A model generated the notes under the pieces. It did no database searches. It was not told where the DNA came from and worked only from the letters and a program-made list of their open reading frames with translations. Both the position numbers and the translations under genes were made by a program. Below are positions 34,720 through 40,995 of a DNA stretch of 64,000 nt, in pieces. Source of the stretch: Candidatus Methanoperedenaceae archaeon (GTDB lineage Archaea > Halobacteriota > Methanosarcinia > Methanosarcinales > Methanoperedenaceae); the NCBI GenBank assembly GCA_963753595.1, contig CAVWCX010000018.1, positions 1 to 64,000 of the forward strand, written 5' to 3'. Position 1 is the first letter of the stretch. Every line of letters begins with the position of its first letter.

Positions 34720-35217
34720 TCACTTCATCCTGAACTTCTCAAACCTTTCCTTCTTCGCCCTGCAAATAGGACATAGATCCGGCGCCTCCTCCCTTGCGCA
34801 CAGATAACCGCAAACCTGGCACCTGTAAACCTCAACCATTTTTCCACCTCCTGCTCCTTTCTGTTCTTTAATACCTGGATAACCTTTCACATAATATTCC
34901 TGGGGACGCCGCTCCGGGACAACACCATGCGGCTTTCTCCCTGCGATCCATTCATCATTCGCATACAGCGTACACAGGCAGCTTCCATATTCTGCGATAT
35001 CGGCATCACGATAATTGCACGGGCATATGATATCCATATCATCTGCAAGCGATCCGCCTGCAAGACGGCAGGGGCACGATGGATAACCATAGCGATGCTC
35101 ATTGTCCCACATCCCCTGGAGAATGTCCTGGAGTTCCAGCTTATTCGGATTGAACTTGTAGCCCTCTTCCCGGGCTATCTTTTTCATCTCATCGAACATT
35201 TCTTCGATCGTTCTCAT
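34720..35217 (-). CDS. Ferredoxin:disulfide (thioredoxin/glutaredoxin) reductase with a C-terminal rubredoxin domain
   Basis: FTR motifs CPC, CPC, CLC plus rubredoxin CQVCGY...CPIC. Confidence 0.9.
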   Translation of the reverse strand: MRTIEEMFDEMKKIAREEGYKFNPNKLELQDILQGMWDNEHRYGYPSCPCRLAGGSLADDMDIICPCNYRDADIAEYGSCLCTLYANDEWIAGRKPHGVVPERRPQEYYVKGYPGIKEQKGAGGGKMVEVYRCQVCGYLCAREEAPDLCPICRAKKERFEKFRMK

Positions 35218-35471
35218 AAACCAAGCGCCTCTCTTACTTTATCTTCATAGAAACCAACAATGACCTTTTTTCCTATTACTATGGTGGGAAATCTCATATC
35301 ACCACTAATTTTTGACATTTCCGTAAGGGTTTGCCTTCTTTCCTCACCGTCTAATTTATCCACATCTGTATAATCAAATTCAATCCCGTTCTCCCTGAAG
35401 AACTTTTTTGTAGCAGTGCAATGAACGCAAGTGCTCAAAGTATAAAGCCTGGGTCTAATGGTTTTTGTCAT
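35214..35471 (-). CDS. Glutaredoxin-like protein (methanoredoxin/NrdH type)
   Basis: LYTLSTCVHC...FPTIVIG...IVGF. Confidence 0.9.
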   Translation of the reverse strand: MTKTIRPRLYTLSTCVHCTATKKFFRENGIEFDYTDVDKLDGEERRQTLTEMSKISGDMRFPTIVIGKKVIVGFYEDKVREALGL

Positions 35472-36430
35472 GGTCCGTGCATCTCCCTGTGTTCTTCTGT
35501 AACTGCATGATGTTCCTCAACTGGTTCTAATTCACAAACTTCCGGCGCTCCTTTTTCTTTATAATGAAGGTTCCATTTCCTGCAAACCCAATTCTGGAGA
35601 ATATTTATATCCTCATCGCTCATGTGCCTGAAACGGCCCTGCATCATCAGGTAATCCCTTACAGATTTCATTTTTCCGGGCTTGTATGTGATCTTTTTCT
35701 CACCCGCCACTACTTCATAAAGTGTCCACATCCCGCTTTCAACAGCCCTTTTTGTGACCTCTACGGTCCTGGCAGGATCCATCTTCCAGCCCGGGATGCA
35801 TGGAGTGAACATATGAAGGAAACGGAATCCCTTGATATTTTTTGCCTTCTCGACTTTCCTTATGAAATCAAGAGGATGCCCGATAGAAAGTGTGGCATAA
35901 TATGGAATTTCATGGGCTGCAACGATCTCCCCGAGATTTTTCTTAAACCGCCTGTTTCCCTGGATCTCCTTTCCAACCGGCGTTGTGGTAGTCCAGGCGC
36001 CAAATGGTGTCCCGCCGCTGCGTTGTATTCCTGTATTCATGTAAGCCTCATTATCAAGGCAGATATAAAGAACATCATCGTTACGTTCAGCCGCGCCCGA
36101 CATGCTTTGCAAACCGATGTCATAAGTCCCGCCATCCCCGGCAAAACCAACAACAGTGACTTTTTTTCCTTTCTTTTCAAAAGCAGCCTGCATTCCAGCC
36201 AGGCAGGCTCCGGTATTCTCAAAAGCCGTATGGAAGAACGGCACTTTCCATGCGCCATAAGGAAATGTTGTACCAAACACCACGGCGCAGCTTGCAGGAA
36301 CATAAACAACGGTGTCTTTTCCAAGCACACGTATCGCATTTCGTATAGACATGGCAACACCGCATCCAGGGCAGGCAGTATGCCCTGCTGTGAAAAGATT
36401 AACATCCGGGAGATCCTTTATTGTGATCAT
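35468..36430 (-). CDS. porB: Pyruvate/2-oxoacid:ferredoxin oxidoreductase beta subunit
   Basis: GHTACPGC, GDGGTYDIG, DNEAYMNTGIQRS. Confidence 0.92.
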   Translation of the reverse strand: MITIKDLPDVNLFTAGHTACPGCGVAMSIRNAIRVLGKDTVVYVPASCAVVFGTTFPYGAWKVPFFHTAFENTGACLAGMQAAFEKKGKKVTVVGFAGDGGTYDIGLQSMSGAAERNDDVLYICLDNEAYMNTGIQRSGGTPFGAWTTTTPVGKEIQGNRRFKKNLGEIVAAHEIPYYATLSIGHPLDFIRKVEKAKNIKGFRFLHMFTPCIPGWKMDPARTVEVTKRAVESGMWTLYEVVAGEKKITYKPGKMKSVRDYLMMQGRFRHMSDEDINILQNWVCRKWNLHYKEKGAPEVCELEPVEEHHAVTEEHREMHGP

Positions 36431-37599
36431 ACAGTTTCACCCCGCGTATTATGCCAGTTGACATCATTCACTTTTACTCCTTTTGCAGCTTTTCGCGTTA
36501 ACTCGAACATCTTCATTATCTGCTCTTTTGTCACATCACGACCCCCAAGGCCTGCAAGGTGGTCAATGACAGGAATGTTCATCCCATACAGGGCCGATCG
36601 AACTTCATTATACACAGGCCCTCCGCCATGATATGATATTGAGCGGTCAAAAACACCAAGAGCACTTATGTTTGATACCGCTTTTTTTAATTCATCGGCC
36701 GGGAATGGCCTGAAAAACCGCAATTTAATAATACCCGCTTTTTCACCTTTTTCTCTCAGTTCATCGACAACCTCACGAGATGTACTTGTGACAGTTCCCA
36801 TAGTGATCAAAGCGATATCGGCATCATCCATCCGATAAGTATCAACCATGCCTCCATAATCCCGTCCGAATTTTTTTGCGAATTCGCTGTTTATTTCCTG
36901 GATGACTTCTTTTGCGGATTCAACTGCTCCCGCTGTTTGTCTTCGTAATTCCATAATATATTCAGCAGGCATGAAAGTCCCGATCATCGCGGGTCTATCC
37001 GGGTCAAGAATAATATCGGGTTCATACGGGGGAAGGAATGAATCAATTTCTTCCTGCTGCGGGACATCGACAGGTTCAACAGTATGCGTAAGCACAAAAC
37101 CATCAAGACAGGGCATCACGGGAAGAAGAACGCGTTTATCCTCGGCGATCCTGAAAGATTGTATTACCATGTCAAGAGCTTCCTGGTTATCTTCAACATA
37201 AAGCTGCAGCCATCCTGAATCCCGCGCGCCCATGGAATCATTATACTCGCACCATATCCCCGGAGGGCCTCCAAGGGTCCTGCTTGCGTTTGCCATCACG
37301 ACCGGAAGGCGAAGCGGCGCTGTTGCATAGAGCATCTCATGCATGAAAGCAAGCCCCTGTGAAGATGTCGCGGTAAAAACCCTTGCACCCGCAGCAGATG
37401 CAGCCGCTGCTGCGCTCATCACACTGTGCTCGGATTCCATTGTAAGGAACTTTGCATCAAGTTCCCCGTCATTTACAAAATCTGCGATATGCTCTATAAT
37501 AAGGGTTTGCGGCGTTATCGGGAAAGCCGGTACCACCTCCACGCGGCAAAGTTTTGCACCTACTGCAACTGCATGATCGCCTGTTATTACTTTCTTCAT
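36427..37599 (-). CDS. porA: Pyruvate/2-oxoacid:ferredoxin oxidoreductase alpha subunit
   Basis: [37 protein letters not shown] 37599 overlaps the upstream stop. Confidence 0.92.
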
Positions 37600-38495
37600 A
37601 CCCGTGCCCTCACCATTTTTATGGCATCCACCGGGCATTCATTGGCGCATACGCCGCATCCTTTGCAATAATCATAATTAGTCATCAGGTCTCCCCTGTC
37701 AGAGATCCGGTGGATCGTGCCTTCAGGGCAATAAAACCAGCATAAAAGGCACATTGTGCATTTTTCCTTATCCCTTAAAGGCCGGTATGTAGCCCAGCCA
37801 GAGACTTTATTCTCGATAAAACTTCCCGGACCGATAAGACCGGCTTCCGTTTTACCTTCAATAAGAGCTCCACCTATGGGATAATCCTGGTATTCTGGAA
37901 GCCATTGTTTCTTTGCTTCAAGCTTTTTTACACCCCTGCTTTTTCCCATCAATGTCTGTTCATATGAAGTCCTTGCAGCAAGCGCATTTCTCTCACCCAC
38001 CTTTTCCCCAAGTTTTTCACCGAATTTTCTCTTGATGGATTCTTCCAGGGATTCGATCTTAATAATTCCTGTAGCCTTCGCAAATGCCCCAAGAATAGCC
38101 GTATTGGTGATCGGGGCTTTCAGGATTTCAAGCGCTATGGAGGTTGCATTGACAGTCGCCGTGTTGATGATCTTGCCCAGGTCTATGTCTTCCGGTTTTT
38201 CCTTTGAGTTAATAACCGCAATACCTTCCGGTTTTAAACCCGATACAACATCTATTGTGTCAAGCAGCGAATCATCAAGCACGACCACGCAGTCAGGATT
38301 ATACACCTGGGTTTTGCTATAAATTTTTTTGGAATCTATCCGCGTAAAAGCAAGAACCGGAGCGCCACGCCGTTCAGCCCCAAAAAAAGGAAAAGCTACG
38401 GCATAATTTCCTTCAGTTACCGCAGCCTCGGCAAGGGTCTGGGCAGCCATGACCGCTCCCTGCCCGCCACGCCCATGAAACCTGACTTCGTACAT
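37596..38495 (-). CDS. Fused gamma-delta subunit of a pyruvate/2-oxoacid:ferredoxin oxidoreductase
   Basis: HGRGGQG and FGAERRGAP (gamma) plus 2x[4Fe-4S] [12 protein letters not shown] / [13 protein letters not shown] (delta). Confidence 0.92.
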
Positions 38496-40051: not shown

Positions 40052-40118
40052 TTTATCCTCCTGTTTAACTGAAATCTCATTGATATATCAATGACTATAA
40101 ATTTAGCTAATATTTTAT

Positions 40119-40520
40119 TTAGTGTCTTCTTCTTCCGCCCATGCAGCCGTGGCCATGTCCATGTTCTTCTTCTTTGCCTTCCATAATTTTCAAAGCTCTC
40201 TTGCATGTGGCTACACCTGGGGCGCCTGAGGTAATGAAAACCACATTCATTGTTTCCAATATTTCTTCCCTGGTCGCACCATGGTTGAGTGCACTCCTCA
40301 TCTGTGATTCGCAGCATGGTTCACATCTTTGCGCTGCCATGACAGCAAGCGACATCAATACTTTCACCTTTGCAGAAAGGGCCCCATCCTCCTGGATGTG
40401 TTCATCGCATTTCTTATAATGTTCAAACATTTCGGGATTTATTTCACCCATCATGTTCATTATTTCGGGAGTAAATCCCATTTTACCTTCTATGCTATCT
40501 ATTACTTTCTTAGGTTCCAT
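40119..40520 (-). CDS. Carboxymuconolactone decarboxylase/AhpD-family protein with a His-rich tail
   Basis: [21 protein letters not shown]...GATREEILE; tail HGHGHGC. Confidence 0.85.
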
Positions 40521-40587
40521 ATTTTTCTCCCATAGTATATCTTTGTTCAGAGTTTATTTAATCTTTTGCCTGTAATTTTGAAAGGAC

Positions 40588-40995
40588 CTATTGAAGGTCA
40601 ATAACTTTCTTCAAGCCTTCTTCTGCTTCTATTGCGAATTTGCTTATTTTATCATAACCTGATAAGGAGTTTGCAGTGCTTAATGCAACAGTTGGTTTAT
40701 AGAGTGAGACTTTAGTTTTTCCTTTGTCGGAATAAACTGCTATCTTGCAGGGAATGATCAGACCCGCCAGCTTGTTTATGGAAAGTCCCTGATGTGCAAG
40801 ACCTGGATTGCATACATCCAGAATAATGTAATCATCATATTCAATTCCTAATTTTTCTGCAAGGATCTTTTGCACATCAATGACGCTCAATACGCCCCAT
40901 TTGTTAGTTTTGAGGTCTTCTGTAAGCTTTTCTACTGCGGATTTTACACTAAGTTTTGATTCTTTTGTGTAATCGATCATATCTTCCAACTCCAT
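40588..40995 (-). CDS. DUF302-family protein
   Basis: WGVLSVIDV...YIILDVCNP...IIPCKIAVY. Confidence 0.85.
   Translation of the reverse strand: MELEDMIDYTKESKLSVKSAVEKLTEDLKTNKWGVLSVIDVQKILAEKLGIEYDDYIILDVCNPGLAHQGLSINKLAGLIIPCKIAVYSDKGKTKVSLYKPTVALSTANSLSGYDKISKFAIEAEEGLKKVIDLQ

Follow-up and report, generated by a model that had tools for sequence, protein, structure and literature searches.

The only mcrC of a Methanoperedenaceae archaeon lies outside the mcr operon, in a family-specific cluster of redox genes

McrC belongs to the complex that activates methyl-coenzyme M reductase (MCR), in which it carries the clusters nearest to F430; ferredoxin has been given as its possible physiological donor, and in the accessible portion of the 2025 report on the structure of the complex the physiological electron donor is not identified (PMC12176620). 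It is still an open question how living cells reduce F430 to Ni(I), and anaerobic methanotrophs face a sharper form of the activation problem because their reducing power derives from MCR itself. For Candidatus (Ca.) M. nitroreducens, mcrBDGA with mcrC elsewhere has already been published, and the sections of that paper available to us do not describe the context of mcrC (PMC9081873). The literature on McrC in Methanoperedens, as far as its text was accessible, yielded no description of the gene cluster reported here, and term searches of a sulfide-stress paper and of the 2015 metabolic-model paper found no mention of its genes. Here, we analyzed a 64,000-nucleotide (nt) stretch of DNA from a Ca. 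Methanoperedenaceae archaeon (assembly GCA_963753595.1, contig CAVWCX010000018.1, positions 1 to 64,000; hereafter the window) and found that the single mcrC of this genome has left the mcr operon and lies in a redox gene cluster specific to Methanoperedenaceae. We put the probability at about one half that this cluster is a family-specific operon which links the expression of McrC with thiol and oxidant repair powered by ferredoxin.

The assembly comprises 2.89 Mb in 37 contigs and is 92% complete, and the contig bearing the cluster is referred to as C18. Its McrC is full-length, matching positions 1-193 of the 194 of profile TIGR03264 with 291.2 bits against a cut-off of 213.5, and aligns with PDB 8s7v_I, the corresponding chain of the MCR activation complex (E 3.8e-66). 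Residues C11, H48, C54 and H122 are invariant in all 40 aligned sequences, and by the alignment with 8s7v_I they are equivalent to C12, H49, C55 and H118 in the numbering of M. maripaludis, which have been named as ligands of the two iron-sulfur clusters bound by McrC (PMC12176620). A profile search of the assembly returned one mcrC above the cut-off; the second-best match (25 bits) was Mmp7. In a census of the family covering four genera, 40 of the 41 genomes likewise contained exactly one McrC above the cut-off, and the remaining genome, which is 67% complete, carried a truncated McrC. The mcr operon of the genome studied reads DUF2098-mcrB-mcrD-mcrG-mcrA, without mcrC. No mcrA is present on C18, and the two mcrA matches sit on contigs C8 and C34. 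The genome also encodes, on contig C3, an activation cluster in the order A2-Mmp3-Mmp6-Mmp5-Mmp15-Mmp17-Mmp7. Since this mcrC is the only one in the genome, since 40 of 41 relatives also have one each and since the mcr operon lacks its C gene, the McrC described here is the general MCR-activation subunit and no extra, stress-specific paralogue.

Two side observations concern this machinery. The gene order DUF2098-mcrB-mcrD-mcrG-mcrA was found twice, at C8:1-9311 (a 9.3-kb contig; L011) and at C34:1-9000 (the start of a 119-kb contig; L012), and the two McrA copies score identically (911.2 bits), reflecting either redundancy of the assembly or a genuine duplication of the mcr operon. A second component-A2-like gene, also above its cut-off (717.9 bits), lies in a 706-amino-acid (aa) frame at C34:31185-32756, about 25 kb from the mcr operon.

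Around mcrC, the open reading frames (ORFs) of the minus strand between 34720 and 40995, together with Pfam and NCBIfam matches, gave eleven co-oriented genes, in the order of transcription as follows.

40588..40995, minus strand: DUF302 protein, 135 aa (PF03625, 69.6 bits), a peripheral member of the cluster
40119..40520, minus strand: AhpD/CMD-like protein (CMD), 133 aa (PF02627, 57.8 bits), with a C-E-P-C-C motif
40052..40118, minus strand: candidate promoter region of the nine-gene unit, with a TATA-like AAATTTATA and the palindrome TCATTGATATATCAATGA; a role suggested by these motifs
39632..40051, minus strand: mini-bacterioferritin, 139 aa, orthologue of Mper-mBfr (PDB 9qq4, E 5.8e-77)
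38947..39630, minus strand: McrC, 227 aa (TIGR03264, scores as above)
38728..38940, minus strand: DUF2180 protein a, 70 aa (PF09947, 113 bits)
38501..38731, minus strand: DUF2180 protein b, a paralogue of a, 76 aa in the longest ORF (PF09947, 91.5 bits)
37596..38495, minus strand: PorGD, a gamma-delta fusion, 299 aa (PF01558, 147.6 bits, plus Fer4), with two CxxCxxCxxxCP motifs
36427..37599, minus strand: PorA paralogue (alpha), 390 aa from its likely start (NF040682, 509 bits, cut-off 550)
35468..36430, minus strand: PorB paralogue (beta), 320 aa (NF008819, 389.9 bits, cut-off 405)
35214..35471, minus strand: glutaredoxin-like protein of methanoredoxin type, 85 aa, with a CVHC site (PF00462, 51.8 bits)
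34720..35217, minus strand: protein of ferredoxin:disulfide reductase (FDR) type, 165 aa (PF02943, 67.2 bits, and PF21349, 50.9 bits)

This content agrees with an earlier reading made from the sequence alone (the sequence-only reading), which had also pointed to tight packing and to the lack of mcrBDGA at the locus. Indeed, neighbours among the nine genes from ferritin to FDR show gaps of 1-6 nt or 4-nt overlaps, provided that PorA begins at the methionine from which its 390-aa orthologues start. The longest ORF of PorA spans 36427-37638, and because the orthologues are 390 aa long its start is probably 37599, 13 codons downstream. Gaps of 67 nt occur twice, between DUF302 and CMD and between CMD and ferritin. 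The spacing suggests that the nine genes are transcribed together. Rfam gave no match across 30-46 kb of the window. Scans for sigma-70-type promoters (22 sites versus 19.2 expected) and for terminator-like sites (8 versus 6.8 expected) are uninformative for an archaeon.

For synteny, the window proteins were compared by tblastn with the 80 best mcrC loci on contigs taken from one genome per species. Twenty-eight of these loci have McrC of at least 79% identity and are labelled Methanoperedens or Methanoperedenaceae or are unlabelled archaea, and all 28 contain mcrC inside the cluster, with the genes in the same order. Ferritin is present in 24, the DUF2180 pair in 26, CMD in 23 and DUF302 in 9 of the 28 loci. 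Of the 26 loci that reach as far as the por position, 24 have POR (2-oxoacid:ferredoxin oxidoreductase), and the other two, both labelled M. nitroreducens, truly lack por, their glutaredoxin gene starting 6 nt after DUF2180b; two further loci end before this position. Glutaredoxin was found in 23 and FDR in 21 of the 28, the remainder being cut by contig ends. From ferritin to FDR, the spacing in these loci consists mostly of 4-nt overlaps or gaps of at most 11 nt. An all-against-all clustering of the ORFs of the 28 loci revealed no conserved flanking family, none being common to more than nine loci. The arrangement is therefore beyond chance, since the order recurs in all 28 loci while the flanks are not conserved.

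The variants among these loci show which links persist when parts are lost. McrC stays with glutaredoxin and FDR despite the loss of POR (L023, L024), and with POR despite the loss of the DUF2180 pair, McrC then being followed directly by PorGD (L035, L039); where ferritin is missing, CMD is followed directly by McrC (L037, L038). The latter four loci represent natural "deletions" useful for comparative physiology. The cluster has an additional member in 16 of the 28 loci, a rubrerythrin-like diiron gene of 131-133 aa between DUF302 and CMD (for example L013:6675-7076). The genome studied here has lost it, and its best match there, elsewhere in the genome, is 29% identical. None of the 52 loci of other lineages has any of the ten partner genes near mcrC: in 16 of them, labelled ANME-2 groups and Methanocellaceae, mcrC lies inside mcrB-D-C-G-A, and in the other 36, mostly labelled Methanotrichaceae, it stands alone. 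The cluster is thus specific to Methanoperedenaceae, and the synteny across relatives that the sequence-only reading had proposed to check extends through this family but not beyond it.

Parts of the cluster stand apart elsewhere as modules from which it has been assembled, namely DUF2180x2-CMD and glutaredoxin-FDR. Of 201 genomes sampled in the class, 123 contain DUF2180 genes, paired in tandem in 83 of the 86 from a large sister family (f2) and in 4 of 4 from family f3, and single in 28 of the 99 from family f5. All nine f2 loci fetched have the fixed order DUF2180a-DUF2180b-CMD, followed in one of them (L123) by desulfoferrodoxin, a multihaem cytochrome and flavoproteins. One flank of the DUF2180 pair in an f3 locus (L134) holds rubrerythrins, an FprA flavodiiron protein and a short FTR-like gene; the other holds the sulfur-transfer genes TusA, DsrE, cysteine desulfurase and NifU. 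Glutaredoxin and FDR form a free-standing pair in variable contexts in 3 of 3 regions examined (f2 and f3 genomes). The modules thus occur without mcrC in oxidative-stress neighbourhoods of sister families, and therefore mcrC may be a passenger: after leaving the mcr operon it would have ended up in an operon for oxidative-stress, iron and thiol homeostasis, similar to the MA4664/MA3734-3743 region of Methanosarcina, where it would profit from a strong promoter but have no mechanistic link to its neighbours. The addition of the rubrerythrin-like gene in most Methanoperedenaceae loci fits this explanation, as does the finding that McrC acts in trans in Methanococcus (PMC9584954), so that its position need not matter. 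Moreover, the lone mcrC of Methanotrichaceae has a tetrapyrrole-methylase-family gene and an ApgM-like gene as its neighbours, which are apparently unrelated to it.

Against a mere passenger, mcrC has kept its slot in 28/28 loci, spanning at least four genera, even where POR, ferritin or DUF2180 has been lost, and a family-specific tail of McrC arose along with the relocation. Relocated mcrC genes elsewhere also often have A2, Mmp7/17-like or CfbC-like partners. In five genomes of family f15, of the same phylum, mcrC is away from the mcr genes, and three of the five have one or two A2 genes immediately ahead of it; elsewhere, DUF2113 and an Mmp7-like protein come after mcrC (L073), or mcrC itself comes after a CfbC/NifH-like gene (L208). 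Relocated mcrC is thus often, though not always, beside functional partners, and mcrC neighbourhoods therefore tend to be meaningful. In family f15, it is tandem A2 genes that precede mcrC. On balance, we regard the passenger explanation as a serious rival, if on the unlikely side. If it holds, the placement of mcrC would be free and Methanoperedens would need no linked accessory genes, which is relevant to heterologous expression of MCR.

The partner proteins of the cluster are consistent with roles in thiol, oxidant and iron chemistry. FDR matched PDB 4tpu over residues 4-162 (E 1.4e-42) and has the cysteine motifs CPC, CPC and CLC of the FTR catalytic type as well as CQVC..CPIC in a rubredoxin-like C-terminal domain. 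The glutaredoxin, whose gene is directly upstream of FDR with a 4-nt overlap, matched PDB 3nzn (E 9e-18) and 5cax (E 1.7e-16) and has a CVHC site. We take 4tpu and 5cax to be FDR and methanoredoxin of Methanosarcina acetivorans. The pair is predicted to act as a ferredoxin-dependent disulfide reductase and a coenzyme M (CoM)-dependent methanoredoxin, and the view that glutaredoxin and the FTR-rubredoxin protein are of the disulfide-reducing pair type thus gains from these structural matches. The "bacterioferritin" proposed for the locus is ferritin-like but not of the classical type: it scores 70.9 bits with the classical bacterioferritin model TIGR00754 (cut-off 125.55), and its residues 1-139 align to residues 1-139 of 9qq4, an end-to-end match that assigns it to the recently described 12-mer mini-bacterioferritin type. 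Mper-mBfr was purified natively from a Methanoperedens enrichment, and the orthologue is therefore expressed under normal culture conditions; an mBfr homologue was also reported there to be highly expressed and down-regulated by salt (PMC13168243).

Both DUF2180 proteins score far above the Pfam gathering score of 22.2 bits. In an alignment of 38 sequences, DUF2180a has seven invariant cysteines and one invariant histidine (C3, C6, C19, C22, C27, H30, C59 and C62), a set that is predicted to be enough for two tetrahedral metal sites, and DUF2180b has the same Cys/His pattern. The AlphaFold2 (AF2) model of DUF2180a (pLDDT 83.5) gave no PDB match at E<=0.001 in a Foldseek search, where only weak likeness to zinc-ribbon or cross-brace zinc-finger folds was seen, and a full-text literature search for DUF2180 found no paper. 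We also considered DUF2180 as a replacement of DUF2098, which in the Methanococcus complex is a small protein bound to McrC; this was rejected, as DUF2098 is encoded directly upstream of mcrB. The CMD protein scores 22.3 bits with the AhpD core model TIGR00778 (cut-off 27.8), and its role as a peroxidase or disulfide reductase is putative. It ends in a conserved C-terminal tail, GHGC[MV]xG[RK]R in the orthologues (GHGCMxGRRR here; 40119-40160, minus strand).

Several proteins of the cluster carry family-specific tails of this kind. The C-terminal tail of McrC, about 25 aa long with the motif H-[AS]-V-R-S-D-L-L-I-x-E-G-L, is present in all 13 Methanoperedenaceae rows of the 40-sequence alignment and in none of the 27 others, and the AF2 model of McrC (mean pLDDT 72) places a short helix in it at residues 213-218. 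The PorB paralogue ends in a conserved His/Glu-rich tail, EEHHAVTEEHREMHGP (35468-35560, minus strand), nearly identical in 23 of 24 orthologues. The His-rich tails of PorB and CMD may be metal-binding or docking peptides. New contacts are suggested by the tails of McrC, PorB and CMD. Together with the two invariant metal sites in each DUF2180 protein, they raise the question of whether McrC has a second job, as a low-potential iron-sulfur carrier that exchanges electrons with the POR paralogue, FDR or the DUF2180 proteins in a reaction other than MCR activation. However, McrC is 86-96% conserved within the genus (95-96% identical to the copies of strain BLZ2 and of the 'LFW-24' archaeon) and 63-72% identical to the in-operon McrC of relatives, all four cluster ligands are invariant, and it is the sole McrC for an activation complex whose other genes are all present. 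There is no positive sign of another substrate. We therefore give such a second job very little credence.

The POR genes of the cluster are complete in their domains (POR, Fer4 x2, POR_N, PFOR_II and TPP_enzyme_C) and run gamma-delta, alpha, beta. Against curated models, PorA scores 509.4 bits (cut-off 550), PorB 389.9 (405) and, for the delta part, PorD 100.7 (120), while the PorC model NF006321 gives PorGD 233.4 bits, above its cut-off of 225; VOR, oxalate and phenylglyoxylate models also match, all below their cut-offs. A canonical PorA above the cut-off (596 bits) is encoded on contig C36, and the cluster PorA is 44% identical to it. Orthologues of the cluster PorA with 76-88% identity are present in all seven other family genomes sampled, and the remaining matches listed in the class are all at most 48% identical. 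Its nearest representative at 50% clustering is 59% identical, and the cluster of that representative includes a protein from a Thermoplasmata-labelled metagenome-assembled genome. In a quick maximum-likelihood tree with SH-aLRT support only, the Methanoperedens PorA clade is sister to the Thermoplasmata-labelled protein (support 98) and apart from the canonical copy, and the origin of the POR paralogue as a recent in-family duplicate of canonical POR was rejected on the basis of this tree. A PorGD-PorA-PorB unit at 56-63% identity was found in 13 loci on metagenome contigs that encode this nearest relative, where glutaredoxin, FDR, McrC and other cluster genes were not found alongside. The best match of the cluster PorA among solved structures is the alpha subunit of 9bt4 (E 1e-108). 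These data indicate that the cluster POR is a genuine second copy, divergent in sequence from the canonical por.

The 67 nt upstream of the ferritin gene contain the TATA-like AAATTTATA; directly after it comes a perfect palindrome of 18 nt, TCATTGATATATCAATGA (40077-40094), whose end lies 25 nt ahead of the ferritin ATG. The palindrome occurs once in the 2.89-Mb genome. In 14 of the 24 related loci that bear ferritin it is found at the same place, exact and preceded by AAAAAGTTAAAATAC, and two more have it with one or two mismatches. It is absent, at up to one mismatch, from 1.57 Mb of other loci, save for pieces of the same contig and one locus of the same genus. Archaeal repressors usually have their operator placed between TATA box and transcription start, and the palindrome is a candidate operator for a regulator of the nine-gene unit, offering a defined sequence with which such a regulator may be sought. 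A MarR_2-domain gene at 41203-41730 is divergent from DUF302 and is not conserved beside the cluster; this MarR-like gene was rejected as the cluster regulator, as it is beside the cluster in 0 of 28 related loci.

Together, these results bear on the strong form of the sequence-only reading, a dedicated MCR protection and reactivation system induced by O2 or nitrite, beyond the housekeeping machinery, in which a linear chain leads from a 2-oxoacid to Ni(I). The second POR fits the proposal that the locus has its own electron source, as a canonical por operon is present as well, on C36, and the quick tree sets the cluster PorA apart from the canonical one. The operator-like palindrome suggests specific regulation, and the gene content is related to oxidants. 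The proposal depended on neither mcrC nor por being the only copies in the genome; por indeed has a canonical second copy, but mcrC has none, and with no second mcrC in 40 of 41 relatives either, McrC must also serve routine activation. A dedicated reactivation system with an additional mcrC is thus not supported. Further, an mBfr orthologue abundant enough to be purified from an unstressed enrichment and a homologue that is highly expressed and down-regulated by salt suggest constitutive expression (PMC13168243), the POR is dispensable in Ca. M. nitroreducens, and no result bears on nitrosative stress. We consider this strong form quite improbable, and the earlier interpretation as a whole is partly supported.

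We return to a family-specific operon that couples McrC expression to ferredoxin-driven repair. Such coupling would amount to co-regulation plus a shared reductant, in a redox-maintenance unit for MCR and not a separate, extra activation system. The unit would combine an oxidant and iron defence set (the AhpD-like protein, mini-bacterioferritin, the rubrerythrin-like protein in most relatives and the two Cys-rich DUF2180 metal proteins), a Methanosarcina-type chain from ferredoxin to disulfides (FDR and the methanoredoxin-like glutaredoxin) and, in most species, a second 2-oxoacid:ferredoxin oxidoreductase. One promoter upstream of ferritin, gated by the palindromic operator, would drive the nine genes from ferritin to FDR. 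The POR paralogue would oxidize pyruvate or a related 2-oxoacid to provide reduced ferredoxin independently of methane oxidation, and FDR and methanoredoxin would spend it on CoM-type and protein disulfides. McrC, produced in step, would join A2 and Mmp3/7/17, encoded elsewhere, to bring Ni(II)-F430 back to Ni(I).

A number of findings weigh against this reading. The association of mcrC with redox genes has been seen in Methanoperedenaceae only, and it counts as a single evolutionary event because it comes from one family and 28 kindred loci. Within them, ferritin is absent from 4/28 and the DUF2180 pair from 2/28, and only McrC is invariant; of the 24 ferritin-bearing loci, 8 have no palindrome or just a degenerate copy. 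The alpha and beta subunits of the POR paralogue fall below the curated PorA and PorB cut-offs, so that pyruvate is a putative assignment for its substrate. The M. nitroreducens genome of L023 has no POR paralogue, its best match (45%) being the canonical enzyme; absent from both cluster and genome in Ca. M. nitroreducens, the paralogue therefore cannot be obligatory for McrC function. The modular origin described above, which leaves room for mcrC as a passenger, adds to these points.

A more far-reaching version takes the whole chain as a unit for jump-starting the cell. If MCR is the only low-potential electron source, MCR resting at Ni(II) would halt methane oxidation and with it the supply of methane-derived ferredoxin. 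The POR paralogue would then oxidize a stored or central 2-oxoacid, and its ferredoxin would re-reduce F430 via McrC/Mmp7 and also drive FDR and methanoredoxin, which would clear CoM-type disulfides and re-reduce the cysteines of the activation machinery. The DUF2180 proteins might be adaptors or electron carriers docking on the tails of McrC and/or PorB. We hold this full chain to be doubtful.

With the single mcrC tied to a ferredoxin-producing enzyme and a ferredoxin-dependent disulfide reductase, the family-wide operon offers testable candidates for the path from the donor to F430, and also for the way in which nitrate-dependent methane oxidizers keep the thiols of MCR and of its activators reduced. 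In addition, it supplies a genomic context for the recently solved mini-bacterioferritin and a first functional lead for DUF2180.

In the surroundings, transposase genes of the IS110 family and of DDE_Tnp_1 type lie downstream of the cluster at 30027-31235 and 32250-33587, and an AT-rich stretch of 1.1 kb (33588-34719; GC ~0.32) without a family-matched ORF separates them from FDR. On the same strand as the cluster, a gene pair at 43127-45345 resembles the subunits of sulfide dehydrogenase or of an NfnAB-type ferredoxin:NADP oxidoreductase, with the domains Fer4_20 and Pyr_redox_2 in one and DHODB_Fe-S_bind and NAD_binding_1 in the other; it does not accompany the cluster in the 28 related loci.

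The DUF2180 neighbourhoods of the sister families agree with the published account of MA4664/MA3734-3743 of M. acetivorans as a putative oxidative-stress operon (PMC3729527). It may be likened to the DUF2180x2-CMD trio of family f2, with a gene-for-gene correspondence that is presumed; that region is without mcrC, POR, ferritin and glutaredoxin-FDR. In the trio of this type CMD comes after the DUF2180 pair, whereas in Methanoperedenaceae it is upstream of the pair, with ferritin and mcrC in between. The ferritin has the same 139-aa length as Mper-mBfr of Ca. Methanoperedens carboxydivorans (9qq4) and aligns with it from end to end; a term search of the accessible text of the report on that protein found no mention of McrC or of a gene cluster, so that the report seems not to take up the link between this gene and mcrC (PMC13168243). 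The FDR and glutaredoxin have the same architecture as the FDR/methanoredoxin system of Methanosarcina acetivorans, an FTR domain with a C-terminal rubredoxin-like domain and a small CxxC glutaredoxin. Their gene order, glutaredoxin then reductase, is that of the three sister-family regions, where the pair stands alone, whereas here it forms the 3' end of a nine-gene unit starting with ferritin and McrC. Relative to archaeal porCDAB (9bt4), the cluster POR has all the domains and Fe-S motifs, but its alpha and beta subunits do not reach the PorA and PorB cut-offs, and gamma and delta are fused, as in the three-subunit oxalate oxidoreductase (5c4i). The closest counterpart of McrC itself is in the ATP-driven MCR activation complex of M. 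maripaludis (8s7v; McrC, Mmp7, Mmp17, Mmp3, A2 and DUF2098; PMC12176620), whose McrC ligand positions are kept here. Like the set of that complex, the genome encodes A2, Mmp3, Mmp6, Mmp5, Mmp15, Mmp17, Mmp7 and DUF2098. Unlike in M. maripaludis, mcrC is here neither in the mcr operon nor with the mmp and A2 genes, and its product has the extra tail of about 25 aa. Moreover, no electron donor has been established for the known complex; here, McrC is encoded together with a POR paralogue and an FDR/glutaredoxin pair.

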